A DNA stretch of 64,000 nt from an uncultured Gammaproteobacteria bacterium (GTDB lineage: Bacteria; Patescibacteriota; Patescibacteriia; Patescibacteriales; GWC2-42-12). This document shows, piece after piece, positions 10,276 to 64,000 of this stretch; within the stretch, counting starts at the first letter, position 1; each line of letters opens with the position of its first letter. Location: NCBI GenBank assembly GCA_964467155.1, contig CAYXNZ010000001.1:4070-68069 (forward strand). The letters are read 5' to 3'. A program made the translations under genes and the position numbers. The notes under the pieces were generated by a model that saw only the letters and a program-made list of their open reading frames with translations, did no database searches and was not told the origin of the DNA.

Positions 10276-10361
10276 TTGGGGTGCTTTATTCCCCGCCAGT
10301 CGGCGGGGTAAACGCTACTAAGCTCAGGCCTGTCCCGCAGTATTGCGGGAACGCACCCCAA
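10276..10361. repeat. cluster of GC-rich nested hairpins (REP-like)
   Basis: An outer stem ttggggtgc/gcaccccaa encloses hairpins ccccgcc-agt-ggcgggg and tcccgca-gtat-tgcggga. Another hairpin (ctactttttg/caaaaagtag) lies just upstream. Confidence 0.6.
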
Positions 10362-10448
10362 ACCCCATGAATATTTTTATACCAAAATTACTATAAAATT
10401 AAAATAAAAGAATTAAGTAAATTTTTATTAAAATAGTTTTTTTTATTT

Positions 10449-11892: not shown

Positions 11893-14064
11893 ATGTCTTT
11901 AAATTTTTACATCGTTTCACATTTTGCGATCGGAACAATTGCTTTTTTCCTTGGTTTTTTAATATTAAAAAATAATTGGAAAAATATTATCAATTTAACA
12001 TATTTTTTGTTAAGTACCAGTATCGCGATTTGGGCAATTTCATACGGCATATGGCTACTATCCAGTAGTCAAGAGATTGCTTTGTTCTGGGCAAGGACTC
12101 TAAATTTTGGTTCTTCATTAATCCCTGTTTTTTATTTACATTGGATAATAAGTGTTTTAAAGAAAGATAATCGTAAAATTTTAACTTTTTATTATTTTTT
12201 TACTTTAGTTTTTTTAATTTTTGGGTATAGCAAAGTATTTATTTCTGGCACACAGCAAATATTGCAATTTTCGTTTTTTCCACAGGCAAATTGGTTGTAT
12301 GTTGTATGGCTAATTTTTGGTTGGGGTTTTGTTATCATTTATACTCAAATTTTATTATTAAAAGAAATATCAAAATCTAATGGAAACTATAGACTTCAAA
12401 TTATCTATATTTACATAGGTTCATTGATTGGTTTTGTAGGTGGGTCAACAAATCATTTATTGATGCTTGGCATCAATTGGTTTCCGCCCATAGGTAGTCC
12501 TCTTGTAGTGGCTTATCCTATAATTTTTGCTTATGCCATAATTAAACATCGTCTCATGGATATTAAATTAGTGATGAGACGGTCATCGGTTTTTTTAATG
12601 AGTTTGTCAATTGTTTTATTGATTGCGATTGGAGTTAAATATTTAGTGGCGATTTATTTTATTGAAGTGTCAGTGTTGCTTGATTTTTTGATTTTAATTG
12701 TCGCGGTTTATTATTTTCCAATACTCAGAAAATATTTTTACAAAGTAGCTAATAAATATTTATTTTCTTCAATGTATGATAGTCGCGAAGTGATTGCCGA
12801 GTTGTCAGAAAAATTGCGTTTTACGCTTGAGATTTCATCAATTTACAAATATATTTCTGAAACACTAGAGCATGCTTTTCATTCTACAGCTATTGGTGTT
12901 TTAATTTTTAATGAAAAAAAAGGTGAGTATGTTGTGAAACATAATCATGGTTTTGCTCTCAATGGTAATAAGTTTTTTGCTGGTGATAAAAAATTGTATA
13001 AGATGTTTATTGAAAAAAATAAATCAATTGTAACTGAAGAAATACGGCAAAGTAATTTACCTCTCGGCATTAGTGGCAATAAGACGATTAAGTTGTTAGA
13101 AAAAATGAAAGTAGATATTTTAACACCATTAAATATTAAAGACAGGACAATTGGTCTGATTGCTTTGGGTTCAAAAGAATCTCGTGATATGTATAATGAT
13201 GAGGATTTACAGGTTTTGGAAGTGATCGGGGCGCAGGCGGCGATTGCCATTGAAAATGCTATTTTGTATGAAGAACAAAAGAATTTTAATATTAAATTAG
13301 AAAAGGAAGTTGAAAAAGCAACCCATGATTTGAAGAAAGCTAATAAACAGTTAATTAAACTTGATGAAGCCAAGTCAGAGTTTATTTCTATTGCTTCACA
13401 TCAGCTTCGTACGCCGTTGACGGTGGTTAAGGGATATATTTCTATGATTCTGGAAAAGAATTTTGGCGAGGTAACGTCAAAGATGGGAGACCCACTGGAA
13501 AAAATATATGAATCAAATGACAGATTAATTAAATTAGTAGAGAATTTACTCAATGTTTCCCGCATTGAATCTGGTAGAATGCAATTTGAAGCACAGGATA
13601 TGCATTTAGAAGATTTGGTAGCTAGTGTGGCTGAAGAATTAACATCCACTGCGAAGAAGAAAAAAATTAAATTAATTTTGAAAAATTCTAAAAAGGTTTT
13701 GCCAAAAGTAAAGATTGATGAGGAAAAGATTAGACAGGTAGTAATGAATCTGATTGATAATGCCATTAAATATACCAAGGAAGGTAGTGTGACAGTTGAA
13801 GTTAAAAAGAGAGATGATAATATTAGATTTTGCGTGGCAGATTCTGGCATGGGAATTGATCCAAAAGATCAGATTAATTTATTTAAAAAATTTTATCGGG
13901 GCGAAGGTACAGTTCTGATACACACTGAAGGTACAGGTTTAGGATTATATGTTGCTCGCAATATGCTCACCATGCACAAAGGTAAGATTTGGGCAGAAAG
14001 TAAAGGGGTTGGTAAAGGCAGTAAGTTTTGTTTTGAGTTACCGATTGAGACAATTAAGAATTAG
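11893..14064 (+). CDS. sensor histidine kinase (7TM N-terminal domain, GAF, HisKA, HATPase_c), no adjacent response regulator
   Basis: It has multiple N-terminal TM helices, a GAF-like segment (IGLIALGSKE), an H-box SHQLRTPLT, an N-box NLIDNAIKYT, and G-boxes DSGMGI / GTGLGL. Confidence 0.9.
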   Translation: MSLNFYIVSHFAIGTIAFFLGFLILKNNWKNIINLTYFLLSTSIAIWAISYGIWLLSSSQEIALFWARTLNFGSSLIPVFYLHWIISVLKKDNRKILTFYYFFTLVFLIFGYSKVFISGTQQILQFSFFPQANWLYVVWLIFGWGFVIIYTQILLLKEISKSNGNYRLQIIYIYIGSLIGFVGGSTNHLLMLGINWFPPIGSPLVVAYPIIFAYAIIKHRLMDIKLVMRRSSVFLMSLSIVLLIAIGVKYLVAIYFIEVSVLLDFLILIVAVYYFPILRKYFYKVANKYLFSSMYDSREVIAELSEKLRFTLEISSIYKYISETLEHAFHSTAIGVLIFNEKKGEYVVKHNHGFALNGNKFFAGDKKLYKMFIEKNKSIVTEEIRQSNLPLGISGNKTIKLLEKMKVDILTPLNIKDRTIGLIALGSKESRDMYNDEDLQVLEVIGAQAAIAIENAILYEEQKNFNIKLEKEVEKATHDLKKANKQLIKLDEAKSEFISIASHQLRTPLTVVKGYISMILEKNFGEVTSKMGDPLEKIYESNDRLIKLVENLLNVSRIESGRMQFEAQDMHLEDLVASVAEELTSTAKKKKIKLILKNSKKVLPKVKIDEEKIRQVVMNLIDNAIKYTKEGSVTVEVKKRDDNIRFCVADSGMGIDPKDQINLFKKFYRGEGTVLIHTEGTGLGLYVARNMLTMHKGKIWAESKGVGKGSKFCFELPIETIKN

Positions 14065-14070
14065 AAATTA

Positions 14071-14104
14071 ACCCGCCTGCCAAGCAAGTTCGCGAGCGGG
14101 CAGG
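14071..14104. repeat. family-2 palindromic element just past the kinase stop codon
   Basis: acccgcctgccaagcaagttcgcgagcgggcagg is about 90% identical to 47589-47621 inside rsmA. It is flanked by a 13-nt direct repeat aattaagaattag (14052-14064 and 14106-14118). Confidence 0.75.
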
Positions 14105-14146
14105 AAATTAAGAATTAGGCGAGGATTATTCTCGTTTTTTTTATCC

Positions 14147-14300
14147 CCCCCCCTCCCTAACCCTCCCCCGCAATAAATTGCAGGAGAGGGAACTATATAT
14201 TTTTTTGAAATTATTTGATATCTATCTATTTTATATTATGCGTATTCCCTCTCCCGTGAGGAACGAGCGGGGGGGGGGTTAGGGAGGGGGGATCCAGAAA
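14147..14300. repeat. long GC-rich inverted-repeat element with an AT-rich core
   Basis: cccccccctccctaaccctcccccgc ... gcggggggggggttagggagggggg form arms of about 25 nt. Inner arms are aggagagggaa / ttccctctccc. The element ends in ggatccagaaaggaatgaca, resembling family-1 ends. Confidence 0.7.
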
Positions 14301-18927: not shown

Positions 18928-19083
18928 AAGATAATTAGTTCGGCCCCTAAACCCCATGGATATTTTTATACAATATTACAATTAAAAAAGAAATAAAATA
19001 ATATATAAGAGAACAGAGGTTGTTATTTGATAAAAATAAGTATTTAATATATAATTTTATAGTAATTATTAGCCTATAAATAA

Positions 19084-37046: not shown

Positions 37047-37115
37047 TGTCATTCCCGCGAAAGCGGGAATCTATTTTTTAAATTATTCTGGATTCCCGCT
37101 TTCGCGGGAATGACA
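37047..37115. repeat. family-1 element between porD and porA
   Basis: tgtcattcccgcgaaagcgggaatc ... ggattcccgctttcgcgggaatgaca forms a near-perfect 25-nt inverted repeat. Confidence 0.85.
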
Positions 37116-45745: not shown

Positions 45746-46420
45746 TTATTCTAATAAAAATTTTTTAAATTCGTTTTTTTGTTGTTTTGAATCGTTTATA
45801 ATTATATTTGTTAATTTTTCGTATTCTTTTGTGTTTTTAAATTGATCGAGAACAATATTTTTATTACAGAGATTACCTTTTCTTAAATTTAAATAATCCA
45901 TATAACTAGACCACGGCCAACTTGTAGCTTTAGTAATATTGTGAATTTCCGAATTGCCGTTAATGTAGCAAGAGACTTTTTGTAATTGACCGTCTGATTT
46001 TATTTCAACAGCTTTAAATGTTCCCTGAAACAATGAGCCTGATCGATTATGTTTGTTGTTAAAATATCTTGTGTAGCCATAGCCTAATTTGTGCATAAAT
46101 TTTGTTATTCCCTCGTTGATAGATTGCTGGACTAATAAATGGAAATGATTTGGTAAGAGCGAATAGCAAATTATTTTTACCAAAGGAATCTTTTTAGAAG
46201 CTAAGCTACTACAAAAAGAATGTTTTTGTAGTAGCTTAGCTTCTTTATCTTTTAATTGTTTTAAGCGATAAATGCTTTCGATTGGATTAATATTATTAAA
46301 TTCACGCAAGCTAATTAAAAATCTTAAATAATCATTTTTATCAAGAAAAATGTTACGTTTATCTACGCCTCGGTTAAAAATATGATAATAGTTATCTGTT
46401 TGAAATTTAATTTTTCTCAT
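45746..46420 (-). CDS. IS200/IS605-family Y1 (HUH) transposase, RAYT-like
   Basis: The start is moved to MRKIKFQ (46420). It has the HUH motif LLPNHFHLLV, a C-terminal Tyr context (SCYINGNSEIH), and WPWSSY. An in-frame hairpin repeat lies at 46196-46244. Confidence 0.75.
   Translation of the reverse strand: MRKIKFQTDNYYHIFNRGVDKRNIFLDKNDYLRFLISLREFNNINPIESIYRLKQLKDKEAKLLQKHSFCSSLASKKIPLVKIICYSLLPNHFHLLVQQSINEGITKFMHKLGYGYTRYFNNKHNRSGSLFQGTFKAVEIKSDGQLQKVSCYINGNSEIHNITKATSWPWSSYMDYLNLRKGNLCNKNIVLDQFKNTKEYEKLTNIIINDSKQQKNEFKKFLLE
46196..46244. repeat. family-3 hairpin (22-bp perfect stem) inside the RAYT-like gene
   Basis: agaagctaagctactacaaaaa / gaatg / tttttgtagtagcttagcttct. It has the same arms as 49149-49193. 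Confidence 0.9.
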
Positions 46421-46443
46421 CGCAAGACGTTTGGTTGAATTTT

Positions 46444-46452
46444 TGCTATAAT
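46444..46452 (+). promoter_or_regulatory. extended -10 element TGcTATAAT
   Basis: tgctataat lies 26 nt upstream of ATG 46478. Confidence 0.35.
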
Positions 46453-46477
46453 CTAAGTATAACATTAAATAAAAAAT

Positions 46478-46942
46478 ATGTTTACAAAAAGAACAATTAC
46501 TTGGGCAATCGTGATAATTATAATTTTAGGTTTGACAGTTTGGCTAGTGCCAAACATAATAAAATACAGAAGTGCAGTCCAGGCAAGCTCAGGTTTTCCA
46601 TATCAGATTGGATTAACTAAAGTGGTGATAATTCCTTGTTTTACTATTGGAACGCCACCAGTATGTGTTGGTGGCACTTTGTGTACCGTAAAGGATGCTG
46701 CGACTTGTACATTGTATTCAGATGTTTCAGGAATGCCAGCTGGCGGTATGGGCGAGAAAGGACTTTTTTTAAATACCGCTATAACTAAAACTGGTTTAAT
46801 ATCTGGTGGGCAATTGATTGCTGGAGGTACATCTCCAGTTTTAATGGATAATGGAGTTTTAGCTTCGGTTGGTGGAGTTTCTTATGCTGTGTCCAATAAA
46901 GTAAATCAAACGATTGATTTTGTGGTTGCCTTATTTGAATAA
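46478..46942 (+). CDS. hypothetical membrane-anchored secreted protein
   Basis: It has an N-terminal TM helix and a Gly/Cys-containing extracellular part. No family was recognised. Confidence 0.45.
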   Translation: MFTKRTITWAIVIIIILGLTVWLVPNIIKYRSAVQASSGFPYQIGLTKVVIIPCFTIGTPPVCVGGTLCTVKDAATCTLYSDVSGMPAGGMGEKGLFLNTAITKTGLISGGQLIAGGTSPVLMDNGVLASVGGVSYAVSNKVNQTIDFVVALFE

Positions 46943-46946
46943 AATT

Positions 46947-47846
46947 ATGGATATATATCAACAAACATTAGAACTGTGTAAACAGTATAATATTAAACCT
47001 GCTCGTTCCAAAGGGCAGAATTTTTTAATTAAAGAAGAAGTTTACAATAATATTATTGAAGCAGCTGATTTGAAAAAAGATAATATTGTTTTGGAGATTG
47101 GACCTGGCTTGGGTTTTTTAACAACCAAATTAGCTGATAAAGCAAAACAGGTAATAACAATAGAACTAGATGATAAATTAGCAAAGTATTTAAAGTTTAG
47201 TTTGGAGATACAAAAAATAAAGAATGTTGAAATTATAAACGAGAATATTTTAGATATTGAAATTGAAAAGTTGAAAGTTAAAAATTTTGAATATAAGATT
47301 GTTGCTAATTTGCCATATAATATCACTTCTATTTTTTTGCGCAAATTTTTATCTTTAAAAAATAAACCAAACACAATGGTTTTGATGTTGCAAAAAGAAG
47401 TAGCAGAGAGAATTTTAGCCAAACCAGGCAAAATGAGTTTACTGGCTGTGTCAGTTCAATATTATGCTGAGCCAGAAATAATTGACTATGTCCCAGCTAA
47501 TGCTTTTTGGCCAGAGCCTCAAGTAGATAGCGCAATAGTTAAGTTGAAAGTCAAAAGTCCCTCCAATTCGGCGGGCAGGCAAAAGTCACCCGCCTGCCAA
47601 GCAAGCTTGCGAACGGGCAGGAAAGTTAAACAGGTTGGTGTGGATAAGGAAAGAGATTTTTTTAGATTAATAAAGTTTGGTTTTAGCTCAAAACGAAAGA
47701 TGTTGAAGAATAATTTATCTGTTGGGTACAAAATAACCCAAGAATTAGCAGAAAATAAACTAAAACAAGTAGGTTTTGACCCAAAAATTAGAGCACAAGA
47801 ATTGTCAGTTGAAGGTTGGGTTAAATTGTTTGGAGAATTTAATTGA
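46947..47846 (+). CDS. rsmA: 16S rRNA (adenine1518/1519-N6)-dimethyltransferase RsmA/KsgA
   Basis: The start is moved to MDIYQQT (46947). SKGQNFL, the motif I sequence LEIGPGLGFLT, NLPYNITS and PQVDSAIV are present. It contains a 25-codon repeat-derived insertion. Confidence 0.9.
   Translation: MDIYQQTLELCKQYNIKPARSKGQNFLIKEEVYNNIIEAADLKKDNIVLEIGPGLGFLTTKLADKAKQVITIELDDKLAKYLKFSLEIQKIKNVEIINENILDIEIEKLKVKNFEYKIVANLPYNITSIFLRKFLSLKNKPNTMVLMLQKEVAERILAKPGKMSLLAVSVQYYAEPEIIDYVPANAFWPEPQVDSAIVKLKVKSPSNSAGRQKSPACQASLRTGRKVKQVGVDKERDFFRLIKFGFSSKRKMLKNNLSVGYKITQELAENKLKQVGFDPKIRAQELSVEGWVKLFGEFN
47547..47630 (+). repeat. family-2 element inserted in frame in rsmA
   Basis: acccgcctgccaagcaagcttgcgaacgggcagg (47589-47621) matches 14071-14104. 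It is bounded by aaagtcaaa / aaagttaaa exactly 75 nt apart, and encodes SPSNSAGRQKSPACQASLRTGRKVK. Confidence 0.75.
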
Positions 47847-49126: not shown

Positions 49127-49148
49127 ATTTTTGAAAATTATAAAATAA

Positions 49149-49193
49149 AGAAGCTAAGCTACTACAAAAACTTTTTGTAGTAGCTTAGCTTCT
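49149..49193. repeat. family-3 hairpin, intergenic copy
   Basis: agaagctaagctactacaaaaa / c / tttttgtagtagcttagcttct, with arms identical to 46196-46244. Confidence 0.9.
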
Positions 49194-58601: not shown

Positions 58602-61055
58602 ATGTTAAAAAATATAAAAAATAAAATTGATATCAAGAAGCATGCCATTTTATTAATAGTTACTTCTTGTTTCGTTGTATCAGTTATTTTTTTTATACCT
58701 TCTATCGTAGAAGCGACAACATCAGATTTAATAAGCGGTACTGTGGGAGTGGCTGTGGCAACAGTAATCGGCTGGATAACGTCCATATTGTCTGCCATAA
58801 TCGGTTTAATACTAACTTTATTGATAAAAATTTTAGTTAATGTAGCTCAATTTAACAATATAATAAATGTGGAAGCGGTATCACAAGGATGGAAAATAGT
58901 TCGTGATTTGTGCAATATGTTTTTTATACTAATTTTATTAGTTATTGCCTTTGCGACTATTTTAAAATTGGAAAATTATAGTGTTAAAAAACTATTGCCG
59001 AAGTTATTAATAATGGCAGTATTGATTAATTTTTCAAGAACTATTTGTGGTTTGATAATAGATTTTGGACAAGTGATAATGCTTACTTTTGTTAATGGTT
59101 TTGGTGACCATGGCGTTAATAATTTTATAAATTTATTTAATATACAAAATTATCAAAGAATATCTAGTAGTTTAGGCGATAAAAAGGTGTCTAATTTTTC
59201 AGTTGCAGGTGCCTTTATTGCTGGTTTAATAGCCATGATAATAACTACAATTGTTGTTTTAATGATGTTAGCAATTCTTGTTATGAGAATAATAATGCTA
59301 TGGGTTTATACAATTTTATCTCCACTCGCTTTTTTGGCTTCTGCTTTTCCAGCTGGGGCAAAGTATGCCCAGCAATGGTGGGGTGAATTTACAAAACAAG
59401 TTATAGTTGGACCAGTGTTGGCATTTTTTATTTGGTTAGCATTGACAACTGCACAAAAATCGTCTACAGCATTAGGTACTTTTGGTGCAGGAGAAGGTTT
59501 GGATGGTCAGGCTTGTGCTGGCATAAATGCCTTTTTTTGCGAAGGTAATTTACAGACATATATAATAACAATAGGTTTATTGGTTGGTGGTCTTATGGTG
59601 GCTCAACAAATGGGTAGTATAACAGGAAATATTGCTGGAAAAGGGTTGAGTTGGGCAAAGGGAGTTGGAAGAGGTCTAGGAAAAGGTTCGTTGGTGGGAC
59701 TGGATTGGGTAAACAGAAAACAGGCGTCTGGTAAAAGAGGAGCAGGAATTGATCTTAATCCTTTTCGACAAGCTGAAAGGATTAAGGCATCTCTTGATAG
59801 AAGTAAAGCAAAAGATTTAGATGATGTTGAAGACAAAGGTAGTGCTCGATTAAAAAAAGGAGGGTGGACAGGGGCGGTTGGTGGATTTACCGCTGCCGGT
59901 TGGGGTGATCAGCATTTGAGAGGATTTTTAGGATACAAGGGATTAATGTCAGCCGTGAGAGGTAATGAAGATAATGTAGGGGAATGGAGAAAAGAAGAGA
60001 AAGAAAACAAATGGATGGCAGAAAATGCTGGAGATAGTTATACAAAAAATTTAAGAGGATTAATTCATAATAAAATTAATGCTAACGCGGCTGGCGATGA
60101 AGATGCTGTTCAAAAATATACTGACGAAATTCTAAAATTAAATAAAAATAAAAAAGAATTAACTAGCCATAACGCCGAGTATTTTACAAAAAAACAAACA
60201 AAAGCCGCAAATTTAGCTGCCAAATATGAAGTTAGAGATTACGAAGGAGGAAAAAGAAGACGTACTGCTGAAAACGAAGAAAGAAGCAAGATTACTTCAA
60301 AAAACGAAGATGAACTAATAGCTCAATTTGGAAATGCTATTTCTCATAACAATAAATCTTTGACTGGGGCATTAGCTAAGGCAATAACTGAAGTGGGTGG
60401 TGGTAACGCATTGTTAAAAAAATATGGTTACCAAGCTACGGCTGGCTTAACTGAAGATGAAGCGAAGGGTAAATCAGATAAAGAGATTATGGATAAAAGA
60501 GGTTTGAATGACTTTATGAGAGATATTTTTGAAAAAAAATTAGGATTAGATAAACAAAGCACATTGGCTTTGCAGAGTGATTTAGGCGGAATTGGTGAAG
60601 CAATAGGACATGATTATTTAATAAAAACGGTTGGTGTTGATGATCAAGGTAGATTTTACCAGAACAACGAAAAAGACAGAAATCGTGTAAAAACAGAAGA
60701 AAAGATTAAGAGAGAACCAGAAGGTGTAATAAGAAAAAATAATCGTTTAGAATATGGAGCCGAAGATATTCATACGGGTGATTTTAATTGGTCAGACTCT
60801 GGCTTAGCTACTTTTATTTCTAATATTGATATGGTTAATAAAGAAATAGATGGTAAAAGATTTAATCGTAGTGCTGCTCAGGCAATTACCCAAGATGATT
60901 CTATGGCTAAATTAATGCAAAAATTGCAACAGCTAAATATTAAGAAAATACAAACTAAAGAAGGGCACTCTATTTCTTTGAAGGAATTTACAGATAAACT
61001 TAATGCCTACGGAAAACAAGCTAGTACAGATCAATTAGACAAGCTGTTGGCTTAA
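58602..61055 (+). CDS. polytopic membrane protein, VirB6/TrbL-like, with a ~450-aa soluble C-terminal domain
   Basis: It has a signal-like N-terminus and about 6-7 TM helices with TrbL-like spacing (LCNMFFILILLVIAF, LLIMAVLINFSRTICGLIIDFGQVIMLTF). A charged C-terminal region follows. The assignment is by resemblance only. Confidence 0.45.
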   Translation: MLKNIKNKIDIKKHAILLIVTSCFVVSVIFFIPSIVEATTSDLISGTVGVAVATVIGWITSILSAIIGLILTLLIKILVNVAQFNNIINVEAVSQGWKIVRDLCNMFFILILLVIAFATILKLENYSVKKLLPKLLIMAVLINFSRTICGLIIDFGQVIMLTFVNGFGDHGVNNFINLFNIQNYQRISSSLGDKKVSNFSVAGAFIAGLIAMIITTIVVLMMLAILVMRIIMLWVYTILSPLAFLASAFPAGAKYAQQWWGEFTKQVIVGPVLAFFIWLALTTAQKSSTALGTFGAGEGLDGQACAGINAFFCEGNLQTYIITIGLLVGGLMVAQQMGSITGNIAGKGLSWAKGVGRGLGKGSLVGLDWVNRKQASGKRGAGIDLNPFRQAERIKASLDRSKAKDLDDVEDKGSARLKKGGWTGAVGGFTAAGWGDQHLRGFLGYKGLMSAVRGNEDNVGEWRKEEKENKWMAENAGDSYTKNLRGLIHNKINANAAGDEDAVQKYTDEILKLNKNKKELTSHNAEYFTKKQTKAANLAAKYEVRDYEGGKRRRTAENEERSKITSKNEDELIAQFGNAISHNNKSLTGALAKAITEVGGGNALLKKYGYQATAGLTEDEAKGKSDKEIMDKRGLNDFMRDIFEKKLGLDKQSTLALQSDLGGIGEAIGHDYLIKTVGVDDQGRFYQNNEKDRNRVKTEEKIKREPEGVIRKNNRLEYGAEDIHTGDFNWSDSGLATFISNIDMVNKEIDGKRFNRSAAQAITQDDSMAKLMQKLQQLNIKKIQTKEGHSISLKEFTDKLNAYGKQASTDQLDKLLA

Positions 61056-61068
61056 TAATTTAATAAAC

Positions 61069-61920
61069 ATGGATACAAAAAAAATATTAAAAGAAGTTGA
61101 AGAAGTCATAAAATTTGATGAGGTGAATACTGCTCATCAGTTTATTGTTGAATTGGAAAATTATTCTAAAACAAATGAATTCCAAAAACAGGATTTAAAA
61201 ATACAAGAGAGTATAAAAAAAATAATTACGCAATTAAAATGGGTGGCTTTACCTTATTGTTTTGAAAAAGATATCTTAGAGATGTTCAGTAGTCATTTTC
61301 AAATTGCTTTAGAAATGGAGTATTTTGATATTTGGGATAAAATTAAAAACACTTTAGTGGCAATTATTCTTCACGAAGATAGAGATAAATTTAAACAACA
61401 AATAAAAAAAATAATAGAAAGAAATAAAGCAAAAATATCCAAAGATAAATTAAATAATAGCATTGAACCAACAGTGGAAAATTGGATAAAAAAATATAGT
61501 GGTTATATTGGTCTAGGGGTAGCTGATAAATTAAAATTTAATCAATTTATTGTTAACGACATAGACATAAAAAAATTAGATGGAATTTATAAAAAAAATG
61601 TTATAGATTTCTTTAAATTTTATGAAAAATTAAAATTATCTTCTCTAACTGTTGTAGGAATAGAAGAATCAATTCCAGTTAACACCCCACAATTCAAAGG
61701 ATATATTAGAGATGGGAGATTGGAAAAAGAAACAAAATTAAGTCCAGAAATTCAAAAAATACTTGATGTTGTTAGTGCAGGAGAAGATGCAACAATTGAA
61801 ATAGCCGTAGATAAAGACGGTAATAAGAGCAGTTTGCAACAATTATTACAAAATTATCCCGAAGGAAGTCTGGAGAGACGGGCAATTGAAGAGGAAATGA
61901 AGAAAATTTCTAAATTATAA
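61069..61920 (+). CDS. hypothetical soluble protein
   Basis: 283 aa, helical and charged, with no recognised motif. Confidence 0.45.
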   Translation: MDTKKILKEVEEVIKFDEVNTAHQFIVELENYSKTNEFQKQDLKIQESIKKIITQLKWVALPYCFEKDILEMFSSHFQIALEMEYFDIWDKIKNTLVAIILHEDRDKFKQQIKKIIERNKAKISKDKLNNSIEPTVENWIKKYSGYIGLGVADKLKFNQFIVNDIDIKKLDGIYKKNVIDFFKFYEKLKLSSLTVVGIEESIPVNTPQFKGYIRDGRLEKETKLSPEIQKILDVVSAGEDATIEIAVDKDGNKSSLQQLLQNYPEGSLERRAIEEEMKKISKL

Positions 61921-61946
61921 TGTCTAATTACTAATTTAAAAAGTAA

Positions 61947-62312
61947 ATGAGCGTCAATGGTAAGAAGTATGATTTAGAAGAGCGAACTGCAATTTTTGGT
62001 GAAAATATAATAAATTTTACTAAAAAATTACCAAAAAATATTATTACTAGCTCAATAATTAGCCAATTAGTTAAGGCGAGTACTAGTGTCGGGGCAAATT
62101 ATTGTGAGGCTGATTGTGCTGAAACAAAAAAAGATTTTGAACATAAAATAGGAATTAGTAAAAAAGAATCAAGAGAATCAAAACATTGGTTAAGAATGAT
62201 AGCCATGGCAGTGCCAGAAATAAAAAATGAAGCTAGAATATTATGGAAAGAAGCCAATGAATTAAATTTAATATTTATAGCTATTGTTAATAATTCTAGA
62301 AAGAATAGTTAA
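61947..62312 (+). CDS. four-helix-bundle protein (23S rRNA IVS protein family)
   Basis: YDLEERTAIFGENIINFTKKLP...QLVKASTSVGANYCEA...ESRESKHWLRM. Confidence 0.8.
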   Translation: MSVNGKKYDLEERTAIFGENIINFTKKLPKNIITSSIISQLVKASTSVGANYCEADCAETKKDFEHKIGISKKESRESKHWLRMIAMAVPEIKNEARILWKEANELNLIFIAIVNNSRKNS

Positions 62313-62353
62313 GTTTTATTTTTTAGAAATTATAATTTAGAAATTATAAATTC

Positions 62354-63754
62354 ATGCTTGGTTATTTAGAAAAATACAATCAATTATCTCAGGAAATTCG
62401 GGATAAGGTTTCAACGCCGGCAATCATGTCGGCTATTGATGATTTGGAAAAAAAATATGGCGTTGATTTAGCACCGACGATAATGAAAGTAATGGTTAAG
62501 GATATCGATTTGAATAATGTTTTACAGATGCAAAAAGAATTAAGTATTGACGAAGTAACTGTTTTGGATTTAGTTGGCGAGTTAAAAGAGCAAATTTTTA
62601 GTGAGGTAGCTGACTATTTGGGGTTAATTAAAAAAGTTTCAGAAGTAGCACTAACTCAGAGTAGTCAAGCTAAAGAAAAGCCAAAAGTTATGTCAGACGA
62701 GATAAGGAAAAATGCTAATTTATTTTTTTCGTCAGAAGATGAACGTGAAATTATGGAATTGTCTAAAGTGGCAGGAAAAATTGATTTACAACCAGCCATT
62801 AAAATATCCGATCAACTCGATAATATAATTGCTAAATTACAGATTAATTTTGGTTCAGATGATTTGAGAAATAGATTTAGGCAAATTATGGAGACATATT
62901 TAAAAGGTATTAGAAGTAGCGTAGAAACCAAACAAGCATTGATTAAATCTTTTGAATCGGGTGGACTGGGTTTTGATGAAGAATCTGTTGATAAAATTGT
63001 GGCGATTGCTAATGATAATTCAAAAAATATAGGTGAAATAAAAATAAAAGTACCAGAGAAAATAAAAACATTAGACACGGAAGAAGAAAAAATTGCTAGC
63101 TTAAGGCAAAGTGGTATTAGAGATGTTGAATATGATTTAGCTAGTGAATTAAAGAAAAAAGAAAAAGAAACTCAAAAACAAAAGAATACAGAAATTGATG
63201 TTAGTCATGAATTAGCGCCACCACCACCAGCTAAAATAATAACTCCTCATAAAATTAAAATTACTGAGCCAAAAAATACAATGCCCGTTCCGTCAGAAAC
63301 AAAAAAGGCAGAAACACAAAAGACGCAAAAAACAATCATTAAACCAGATTTTTCAATTAAACCTAAAGCTAGAATAGTTCAGAGAAAAGAAGGGAAAATA
63401 AAAATGGAGGACGTGAAACAAATGCCAAAGGTTATGAGTCCGATTGATGAATTAAAATATATGGACTTAACTAATTTTCGTCGACTAGGCGAGACTCCAG
63501 AGGCTATTATAGAGGAAATTAAAGAAAGATTATTATTGCTTGAAAATGACAATTATGCAAAAAGATTAGAAGGAGTGAAAGCTTGGCGGAATAGTCCAGT
63601 TAATAAATTATATTTGAGTATTGGGCAAGCCAGCATTAGCGAGAATAAGGCGATTGATGATATAATAGAAGAACAGAAAAAGCAAAATAAAGAAATTTTA
63701 ACTAATCAAGAATTTAAAGCCATCATGGATCTAAACAGAAGCTTGCGTTTCTAG
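62354..63754 (+). CDS. hypothetical protein with a central K/P-rich linker
   Basis: 466 aa with no TM helix and no recognised motif. Confidence 0.45.
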   Translation: MLGYLEKYNQLSQEIRDKVSTPAIMSAIDDLEKKYGVDLAPTIMKVMVKDIDLNNVLQMQKELSIDEVTVLDLVGELKEQIFSEVADYLGLIKKVSEVALTQSSQAKEKPKVMSDEIRKNANLFFSSEDEREIMELSKVAGKIDLQPAIKISDQLDNIIAKLQINFGSDDLRNRFRQIMETYLKGIRSSVETKQALIKSFESGGLGFDEESVDKIVAIANDNSKNIGEIKIKVPEKIKTLDTEEEKIASLRQSGIRDVEYDLASELKKKEKETQKQKNTEIDVSHELAPPPPAKIITPHKIKITEPKNTMPVPSETKKAETQKTQKTIIKPDFSIKPKARIVQRKEGKIKMEDVKQMPKVMSPIDELKYMDLTNFRRLGETPEAIIEEIKERLLLLENDNYAKRLEGVKAWRNSPVNKLYLSIGQASISENKAIDDIIEEQKKQNKEILTNQEFKAIMDLNRSLRF

Positions 63755-63791
63755 TTAATTAGGGCTTGGTTAATTAGGGATTAGTCTAATT

Positions 63792-64000
63792 ATGTCCAAT
63801 AAAATAAAGGGGATTGAAAATTTTAAAATATATAAACTAGCTGAAAGATTAGAAATATTTATATACAAAGTTACTAAAAAATTTCCTATTGAAGAAAAAT
63901 ATAGAAGCATTGATCAGCTGAGGAGATCATCTGCTTCTGCGAGCGAAAATATTTCGGAAAGTTATCACAGATATCATTATAAAGATAAGATTAACAGGAT
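63792..64000 (+). CDS. four-helix-bundle protein (23S rRNA IVS protein family), 5' partial at window end
   Basis: Manual translation gives MSNKIKGIENFKIYKLAERLEIFIYKVTKKFPIEEKYRSIDQLRRSSASASENISESYHRYHYKDKINR... It is not in the ORF track because it runs off the window. Confidence 0.75.
   Translation, partial: MSNKIKGIENFKIYKLAERLEIFIYKVTKKFPIEEKYRSIDQLRRSSASASENISESYHRYHYKDKINR

Follow-up and report, generated by a model that had tools for sequence, protein, structure and literature searches.

A 33-nt GC-rich element, probably REP-like, in AT-rich heptamer arrays of a Patescibacteria genome

The 64-kb stretch of contig CAYXNZ010000001.1 analysed here (the window; 33% GC) carries a 33-nt GC-rich element just downstream of a histidine kinase gene and a second copy within the gene for the 16S rRNA dimethyltransferase KsgA/RsmA. 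Comparison with orthologous DNA lacking the element indicates that insertion is precise, adding exactly the 33 nt of the element and leaving the target unduplicated. It is probable that this is a miniature element resembling the repetitive extragenic palindromic (REP) sequences, which is placed in AT-rich heptamer arrays precisely and without duplication and is mobilised as a single strand. The initial annotation of this DNA had regarded a 13-nt direct repeat around the kinase copy as a long target duplication generated by the insertion. As judged from the orthologous loci, this repeat was already present before the element and is thus no footprint of the insertion mechanism. Accepting the target duplication would mislabel the element as a cut-and-fill (DDE-type) transposon. 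Homologs of the kinase, KsgA and Dus proteins assign the window to Patescibacteria, with names of the Falkowbacteria or Parcubacteria type.

The element at the 3′ end of the kinase gene

The kinase gene (11893–14064, + strand) encodes a protein of 723 aa with the domain order HisKA_7TM-GAF-HisKA-HATPase_c. Its open reading frame (ORF) ends with ACA ATT AAG AAT TAG and is continuous at this point with an AT-rich heptamer array. The 13-mer AATTAAGAATTAG at 14052–14064 comprises the final codons and the TAG stop (14062–14064), and an exact second copy follows 54 nt downstream at 14106–14118; at one mismatch or fewer these are the only two occurrences in the whole window. The left part of the array (14052–14071, + strand) reads AATTAAG AATTAGA AATTAA. 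It is followed on the same strand by the 33-nt element CCCGCCTGCCAAGCAAGTTCGCGAGCGGGCAGG (14072–14104), the core of the repeat termed family 2, and by the right part of the array (14105–14119), which consists of an A and then AATTAAG AATTAGG. The array runs into an intrinsic-terminator-like hairpin (GCGAGGA-TTA-TTCTCG) with a T run at 14117–14142 (+ strand), which is conserved beside the array in the orthologous loci L076 and L124. The perfect recurrence of the 13-mer with the GC-rich element between the copies, as the initial annotation had described it, is confirmed by the sequence. The translation likewise bears out that the frame past the first TAG stays open through the element (ETIKN-stop-KLTRLPSKFASGQEIKN-stop) and ends again in EIKN-stop. 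The two 13-mers bracket the element but do not abut it, since 7 nt (AAATTAA) separate them from it on the left and 1 nt (A) on the right. The insertion point is thus not in the extreme 3′ end of the gene, as had been supposed, but in the 3′ untranslated region (UTR), 7 nt past the stop codon, at AAATTAA/AAATTAA (here and below, a slash between sequences marks the insertion point).

In first-order Markov simulations an exact local repeat of 13 nt is expected by chance 0.62 times on average per 64-kb window, and at least one occurs in 36% of the simulated windows. A repeat placed on both sides of the element, of which the window has just two copies, is not due to chance, and the orthologous loci identify it as a genuine local duplication. 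The kinase locus is identical in several metagenome assemblies that carry the same strain; JGI 3300025642 and 3300025669 and ENA ERZ27315495 and ERZ27315536 are among the metagenomes with this strain.

The origin of the repeat is evident from contig L124. The kinase fragment encoded there (P0366) ends with EIPIETIKN, as the window protein does, and falls in the same 90%-identity cluster as P0038, the L075 protein, which is 82% identical to the window kinase. The gene downstream is the same as in the window. The sequence of L124 at the insertion point is GAGACAATTAAGAATTAAAAATTAA/AAATTAAGAATTAGATGGG and, over a longer reading, CCAATTGAGACAATTAAGAATTAAAAATTAA/AAATTAAGAATTAGATGGGAAGAATATTCTCGTCTTTTTT; in the alignment with the window the sole length difference is one clean gap of 33 nt exactly at CCCGCC...GGCAGG. 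This clean gap shows the element to be a true insertion, as had been proposed. L124 contains an array of five 7-nt units, AATTAAG AATTAAA AATTAAA AATTAAG AATTAG, in agreement with the AT-rich AATTAAG-type target suggested earlier, and the array of the window differs from it only in unit 2 (AATTAGA) and in the presence of the core. The "13-nt direct repeat" therefore corresponds to units 1–2 and 4–5 of the five-unit array AATTAAG AATTARA AATTAAA AATTAAG AATTAG. L124 holds the same repeat (AATTAAGAATTAA and AATTAAGAATTAG, 12/13 identical and 21 nt apart) without the element, and the repeat consequently predates the insertion. The initial annotation had itself named an orthologous repeat without the element as the observation that would speak against a duplication made by the insertion, and this claim has to be abandoned.

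Two more distant orthologous loci, L076 (kinase 65% identical) and L075 (82%), carry an earlier TAG stop followed by a single TTAATTAAGAATTAG. Only two array units are present in L076, where the terminator follows TTAATTAAGAATTAG directly, and the L075 contig ends inside the 13-mer. Taken alone, these loci look like an empty site and would favour the model of the initial annotation. The kinase stop has been shifted between the loci: the genes in L076 (3486–3506) and L075 (1346–1368) end with PI(M/A)-TAG and then TTAATTAAGAATTAG, with stops in all three frames, and in the window (14050–14064) and L124 the old TAG has been lost, with ACA in place of TAGTTA, and the gene runs on for four residues to end in ETIKN. 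Conservation of the 13-mer, which is untranslated in L076 and L075, exceeds that of nearby synonymous sites. The upstream 13-mer had been thought to preserve the original terminus of the gene; the present terminus arose earlier than the insertion, from the loss of the older TAG that L076 and L075 still have. The likely order of events is that the old stop was lost and the array grew from two to five units (+21 nt) by local duplication, and that the 33-nt element was later inserted, in the window lineage, 7 nt downstream of the new stop.

A long inverted repeat lies at 14143–14296, right after the kinase terminator. Its C-rich arm (14148–14169) and G-rich arm (14270–14291) show 95% complementarity and are separated by 100 nt. 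A left arm of this kind (CCCCTCCCTAACCCTCCCCC) is present at the same place in L076 (3538–3562), and the corresponding spacer of L124 contains quite different GC-rich hairpins, so the turnover of this spacer is fast. A search of the kinase region against Rfam returned only spurious matches to miRNA models, located on this neighbouring inverted repeat. The kinase homologs P0019, P0058, P0014 and P0037 have C-terminal extensions that resemble translated GC-rich hairpins, for example CCHPGPRSGIQK and GECRPKVGQPLAE; going by these extensions, insertions at the 3′ end of the kinase gene seem to recur in other genomes.

The copies in KsgA and Dus genes and their heptamer targets

Five copies of the element were identified, in several Patescibacteria genomes and all exactly 33 nt long: in the window kinase 3′ UTR, the window KsgA gene, and at L090 (Dus), L117 (KsgA) and L118 (Dus). 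Their consensus is CCCGCCTGCCA-(10 variable nt)-CGARCGGGCAGG. The termini of 11 and 12 nt are invariant in all five copies except for one G/A position, the 10 nt in the middle are variable, and the flanks bear no relation to one another. Every copy begins with CCCG, ends with CAGG and lies in the sense orientation to its host gene. The complementarity of the ends is limited to 6 sub-terminal nt (CCTGCC/GGCAGG, here the two paired strands), which start 4 nt in from the 5′ end. L117 and L118 were found by searching the sets of homologs for element-encoded peptides and then fetching the DNA. A metagenome scan gave one true new member, L090, in the Dus gene of another low-GC contig; the source contigs were not recovered by it. 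The scan of a genome collection with exact 17-mers gave 71 matches, roughly as many as chance would give (this collection does not include the source genome), and a scan of viral contigs gave 12 matches, all at chance level. No further copy is present in about 18 kb beyond the window (about 9 kb at each end), so that the source genome has two copies in the roughly 82 kb covered.

The same ends (CCCGCCTGCC and CGGGCAGG) around other middles also occur in L059/L096 (Prolixibacteraceae), in L012/L064/L085 (a Desulfobacteraceae bin), in L082/L083/L099 and in L054/L066 (Saccharibacteria). At L012, CCCGCCTGCCATTGC and GGCACGAGCGGGCAGG match the halves of the L118 type, with another unit nested between them. 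These matches from outside the lineage suggest a wider family or horizontal spread, for a set that the search pattern itself selected.

The KsgA gene of the window is annotated at 46914–47846 (+ strand), with the TTG start at 46914 taken from the ORF list; the true start may be later. The second copy of the element (47589–47621, + strand) is 30/33 identical to the kinase copy, and zero matches of that similarity are expected by chance in the window. It is read in frame as PACQASLRTGR and lies between AAAGTCA and AAAGTTA. The same loop contains a degenerate relative of 21 nt, CCCTCCAATTCGGCGGGCAGG (47559–47579, + strand; PSNSAGR), which is absent from L113. Compared with about 120 orthologs the window KsgA has 19 extra residues in this one loop, those beyond the 11-codon insert being mainly due to the degenerate element. 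The closest KsgA ortholog, at L113 (71% identical), provides the empty site GGAAAGTCA/AAAGTTAAT, where the window reads AAAGTCA-core-AAAGTTA.

The two Dus proteins of L090 and L118 and the KsgA protein of L117 each have exactly 11 extra codons relative to about 120 orthologs. Dus orthologs without the insert read F(S/P)ISNFQF(S/P)I or LRINNYELRI at this place, and the insert of L090 and L118 comes after the Asn. An empty Dus site is found at L123, with the sequence TAAACAA TTACGAA TTAACAA/TTACGAA TTACGAA TTAAGGA. The direct repeats that flank the copies are thus ancestral host sequence, as seen directly in DNA for the window KsgA (L113) and for Dus (L123). At three sites (kinase 3′ UTR, window KsgA and Dus) empty orthologous DNA gives a net insertion of exactly 33 nt without duplication, and for the KsgA site of L117 the same result rests on protein alignments. 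The initial annotation had proposed that the remaining family-2 copies be inspected for flanking duplications: in none of the four is such a duplication insertion-made, as judged from DNA at L113 and L123 and from protein alignments for the rest.

The elements of L090 and L118 belong to different subfamilies but occupy the same nucleotide of Dus, which suggests, from the sequences compared, repeated targeting of this position; common ancestry followed by conversion is a possible alternative. Across its host positions the element is read in three different frames, and conserved RNA-modification enzymes tolerate it as 11 additional residues in a loop. Elements of this kind account for loops of variable length and for displaced gene ends in these genomes, which is of use in annotation.

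Across Patescibacteria, many different GC-rich in-frame insertions concentrate in one loop of KsgA and one of Dus, which are hot spots for them (homologs P0121–P0240 and P0245–P0364). Examples of these inserts are HPVKSRQAGILPKAKLFHG, SPQPPFTKGG, PSRPRRAEAD and TRLPGRQVCAD, and the lengths of the proteins differ by up to about 60 residues. A KsgA variant at L116 (P0242) is identical to the window KsgA up to the degenerate element (GGCGGGCAGG) and unrelated from there on, starting with the hairpin CCTCCTTTGGAAGGAGG. This locus was excluded as evidence; it is probably an assembly chimera at the repeat and possibly a rearrangement.

When the core is removed, the flanks of all five copies fall into a heptamer register. 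They read CAATTAA GAATTAG AAATTAA/AAATTAA GAATTAG for the window kinase, TTTTCAA TTATTAA/TTTTCAA TTATCAA for Dus of L090, TTAACAA TTCACAA/TTCACAA TTAACAA for KsgA of L117, TTTCGAA TTTCGAA/TTACGAA TTTCGAA for Dus of L118 and AAAGTCA/AAAGTTA for the second window copy in KsgA. Four of the five sites have an identity of 0.49–0.61 at a lag of 7 nt, compared with 0.28 on average and 0.49 at the 99th percentile for the background. The 7-mers that abut the insertion point match at 5–7 of 7 positions; a match of at least 6/7 is found at just 0.4% of window positions. The base preceding the insertion point is A in all five copies, the one before it is A in 5/6 flank sequences, and the 5′ tetranucleotides are TTAA, GTCA, TTAA, ACAA and CGAA; the empty Dus site has AACAA. 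In coding DNA the arrays appear as 7-residue (21-nt) repeats with units that co-vary between species (KLKV..KLKV, KLEV..KLEV, QLTI..QLTI, FSI..FSI, FPI..FPI), and this co-variation implies that they are dynamic and prone to slippage. Taken together, these features suggest that the element prefers AT-rich DNA with a 7-nt period. Exposure of single-stranded DNA in slippage-prone heptamer arrays may be what favours them as targets.

Two other readings of the flanking repeats were rejected. A 7-nt duplication abutting the core, suggested by the match of the adjoining heptamers at 5–7 of 7 positions, does not agree with the net insertion of 33 nt and with the presence of both heptamers in the empty sites. 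An insertion-made duplication of 21 nt, with the 7-residue repeats in KsgA and Dus left behind by excision, fails because the left and right 21-mers at the kinase match at only 14/21 positions and because element-free orthologs are no longer than non-repetitive ones; for the kinase, L124 is decisive.

The candidate enzyme, rival explanations and known systems

The window contains a single gene for an HUH transposase-like protein of the Y1 type (45746–46465, − strand; 239 aa), similar to the REP-associated tyrosine transposases (RAYTs). The gene is syntenic in L113, where the Y1_Tnp gene adjoins KsgA; the two orthologs are 68% identical. The protein matches the Pfam model Y1_Tnp with 35.6 bits (cut-off 23). 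Its only NCBIfam match is REP_Tyr_transpos with 32 bits, below the 80-bit cut-off of that model, and the same model is the sole NCBIfam match, again below the cut-off, for 35/41 members of the family. The family comprises 15,899 cluster representatives at E ≤ 1e-3. The HUH motif N106-H107-x-H109 and Y167 are conserved, with H109 present in at least 90% of the aligned sequences. An alignment-based AlphaFold2 (AF2) model of the protein has a predicted local distance difference test (pLDDT) score of 89.6, and its best match in the PDB is 4ER8 (E = 3e-6), the Escherichia coli REP-associated transposase bound to a REP hairpin. The next structural matches are TnpA of IS608 and of ISDra2. The precise, duplication-free and strand-consistent insertions fit the action of an HUH-class enzyme. 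We regard the Y1 protein, from its sequence and predicted fold, as a candidate mobiliser of the 33-nt element, a link which is inferred. The element would then move as a single strand, by "peel and paste" in the manner of IS200/IS605 and REP sequences.

An AT-richer perfect palindrome (AGAAGCTAAGCTACTACAAAAA and TTTTTGTAGTAGCTTAGCTTCT) occurs twice in the window, at 46195–46245 and 49144–49192. The former copy is in frame inside the Y1 gene (KEAKLLQKHSFCSSLASKK) and has ATCTTTT on both sides, and the latter is intergenic. The Y1 ortholog of L113 has a different insert at this spot and is consequently uninformative as an empty site. The other hairpin families of the window have no long flanking direct repeats, the 51-nt palindrome in the Y1 gene having just the 7-nt ATCTTTT pair.

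Several observations weigh against a REP-like, single-strand mobilised element. L124 could in principle be the product of a precise excision and not a never-occupied site. The initial annotation had called the element palindromic, which holds insofar as it has stems of 6 bp (5–7 bp across the copies); the palindrome is weak and imperfect, its folding energy is no better than that of shuffled sequences (z = −0.3 to −1.3), and the predicted fold differs among the copies, with at most one weak hairpin in the 33 nt. A GTAG or CGTC tetranucleotide tag is absent from the ends of all five copies. The 5′ flank is weakly conserved, with the A at −1 alone constant, and IS200/IS605 elements need a fixed tetra- or pentanucleotide. 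Only five copies are known, four of which were found by way of coding regions, and the association with heptamers and the sense orientation may therefore partly reflect which insertions are tolerated. The heptamer pattern in particular could be partly a matter of survivorship, with insertions persisting only in tolerant loops built of repeats. Both window copies lie on the strand with a GC skew of +0.15 to +0.31, a strand bias that may instead be in line with such an element, in small numbers (two window copies, five in all). With regard to the enzyme, no family-2 copy flanks the Y1 gene in the window, the nearest being 1.1 kb away inside KsgA. Nothing ties the Y1 protein to this particular element, the window holds several other hairpin families, and the relative represented by L113–L115 has the Y1 ortholog and a KsgA without the element.

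The rival explanations account for parts of this evidence. The core might have no dedicated transposase and spread at replication, through template switching mediated by microhomology or gene conversion of short tracts, from one AT-rich heptamer array to another similar one, with the homology provided by the arrays. This would agree with the location of every copy in heptamer-periodic DNA, with the likeness of the abutting 7-mers and with the concerted evolution, expansion and contraction of the arrays (KLKV..KLKV, QLTI..QLTI and FSI..FSI, and an expanded array in P0182). The boundaries of the five copies, however, are identical to the nucleotide despite different heptamers (AAATTAA, AAAGTCA, TTATTAA, TTCACAA and TTTCGAA), while tracts transferred through homology would be expected to differ in length and to bring flanks of the donor with them. 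Termini of 11 and 12 nt that are conserved around a free middle rather resemble recognition sites of an enzyme, and we consider template switching unlikely. Still further from the data is the notion that the core is not mobile at all and serves a function, for instance as an RNA hairpin or as a site bound by a protein, having originated or come under selection separately at every site. Conservation of its termini is strong between genomes with proteins of only about 55–60% identity, and the kinase copy is found beside a terminator, in a 3′ UTR that is transcribed. An immobile motif would nevertheless hardly be expected at unrelated positions in a 3′ UTR and in surface loops of two unrelated enzymes, in three frames, with clean presence or absence between close relatives and with neither an Rfam match nor a conserved fold. 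We give this idea almost no credence.

The window has 54 extra nt at the kinase locus relative to L076, which has the 13-mer once, and the two window 13-mers are identical. Both facts could be accounted for by an element of 41 nt (AAATTAA, the core and A) that entered through a staggered cut and fill-in with a 13-nt target duplication, L124 being a revertant minus the 33-nt core. Such an element is very improbable in view of L124, which has the repeat and the intervening AAATTAAA and no core. The 7 nt to the left of the core are ancestral host sequence in the second window copy and in L090, which makes the element 33 nt and not 41 nt long, and an insertion-made duplication is found at no other copy. 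The exactly in-phase array of 5 × 7 nt formed by the core-less flanks would be a coincidence under this model. Moreover, an exact tandem duplication of the 14-mer TTTAGAAATTATAA is present at 62322–62350, in the spacer after a 23S_rRNA_IVP-family gene and without a GC-rich element, which shows that AT-rich DNA of this genome undergoes local duplication spontaneously.

The precise, REP-like element that we favour resembles several known systems without being identical to any of them. REPs carry a GTAG or CGTC tag at one end and are occasionally intragenic (PMC3733652). They are thought to be mobilised by REP-associated transposases (PMC3733652, PMC3116915), and their spread has been called poorly understood (PMC8266576). 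The element shares with the REP/RAYT system a dispersed, imperfectly palindromic repeat within the size range of 20–40 nt (33 nt, two window copies and three on other contigs), the syntenic HUH Y1 gene with a predicted fold that best matches E. coli TnpA-REP, and the lack of a target duplication. It differs in having no tag, in the position of its copies, which do not flank the Y1 gene (no REPtron), and in an apparently low density, two copies in the about 82 kb covered, where REPs reach tens to hundreds per genome. Its host has a very small AT-rich Patescibacteria genome, and tnpA-REP-like genes have been reported mainly in larger genomes (PMC6006769). Insertion points defined to the nucleotide and located in heptamer arrays are also not described for REPs. 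Transposition of the IS200/IS605 type makes no duplication and involves single-stranded hairpins and the replication fork; the elements insert 3′ of a fixed tetra- or pentanucleotide and have separate left-end and right-end hairpins (PMC6006769). The precise duplication-free insertion, the hairpin-bearing element, the enzyme fold and, in the few copies known, the consistent strand orientation are similar here. The 33 nt of the present element, in contrast, have room for one hairpin and not for sub-terminal hairpins at both ends, and only the A at −1 is constant.

Rickettsia palindromic elements (RPEs), according to work cited in PMC3733652, sit in conserved genes including those of RNA-modification enzymes. 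The element is like them an in-frame palindromic repeat in conserved genes of a reduced genome, here adding 11 codons to KsgA and Dus, and differs from them in being just 33 nt long. RPEs have about 100–150 bp and are not known to be related to it in sequence or to have an associated transposase. The GC clusters of yeast mitochondria are short GC-rich palindromes in the AT-rich spacers, and sometimes the genes, of a very AT-rich genome. The likeness to the present element lies in the GC-rich island within AT-rich DNA; the GC clusters belong to an organelle, have other sequences and are reported to be flanked by short repeats such as TAG, and to our knowledge no HUH enzyme has been implicated in their movement. 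The classical MITEs (miniature transposable elements with inverted repeats) mobilised by DDE enzymes, such as Correia/NEMIS and RUP, are also small non-autonomous repeats at gene ends that alter termini. They have terminal inverted repeats and, unlike the present element, a target duplication of fixed length at each copy. A fixed-length duplication absent from the empty site was looked for at L124, L113 and L123 and in protein alignments and was not found. As the element lacks the target duplication that defines classical MITEs and the tag and the position next to the RAYT gene that define canonical REPs, it belongs to no named family and is a variant nearest to a REP or to an IS200/IS605-type miniature element. 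A full-text literature search combining Patescibacteria or candidate phyla radiation (CPR) with palindromic-element, MITE or REP terms returned no paper describing such elements.

We tentatively propose, as a possibility with rather more against it than for it, that an HUH enzyme of the RAYT type moves the 33-nt element as a REP-like singlet and targets the unit boundaries of slippage-prone 7-nt arrays, where slipped arrays would perhaps extrude single-stranded loops. If true, this would explain the repeated in-frame landing at the same nucleotide of the essential genes KsgA and Dus across Patescibacteria. The filled and empty pairs would then be natural evidence, at nucleotide resolution, of REP-type integration. 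For mobile-DNA biology the element offers a compact natural system for how REP-type sequences spread.

Other repeats and genes of the window

A perfect inverted repeat with arms of 25 nt, TGTCATTCCCGCGAAAGCGGGAATC and GATTCCCGCTTTCGCGGGAATGACA, is located at 37047–37115, and each arm is itself a hairpin. A related motif, GGATTCGCGGGAATGACA, occurs in L124 at about 1005–1045. A GC-rich unit of two hairpins (CCCCGCC-loop-GGCGGGG TAAAC ... GTCCCGC-loop-GCGGGA) lies at 10289–10360 and recurs in the same genome at L121 (17211–17253). Part of this unit, CCC(C/T)AAACCCCATG followed by an AT-rich stretch (10356–10413), is repeated at 18945–19002. The two-hairpin unit could be another repeat family or a small RNA.

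Throughout the window the + strand has a strongly and evenly positive GC skew, from +0.05 to +0.31 per 8 kb, and this strand carries nearly all long ORFs. The region 58602–64000 and the loci L121 and L122 contain a cluster of genes similar to those of conjugation or type IV secretion (TrbL_3, PrgI, TraC-like and a TraG-type P-loop protein), interleaved with genes of the 23S_rRNA_IVP family.

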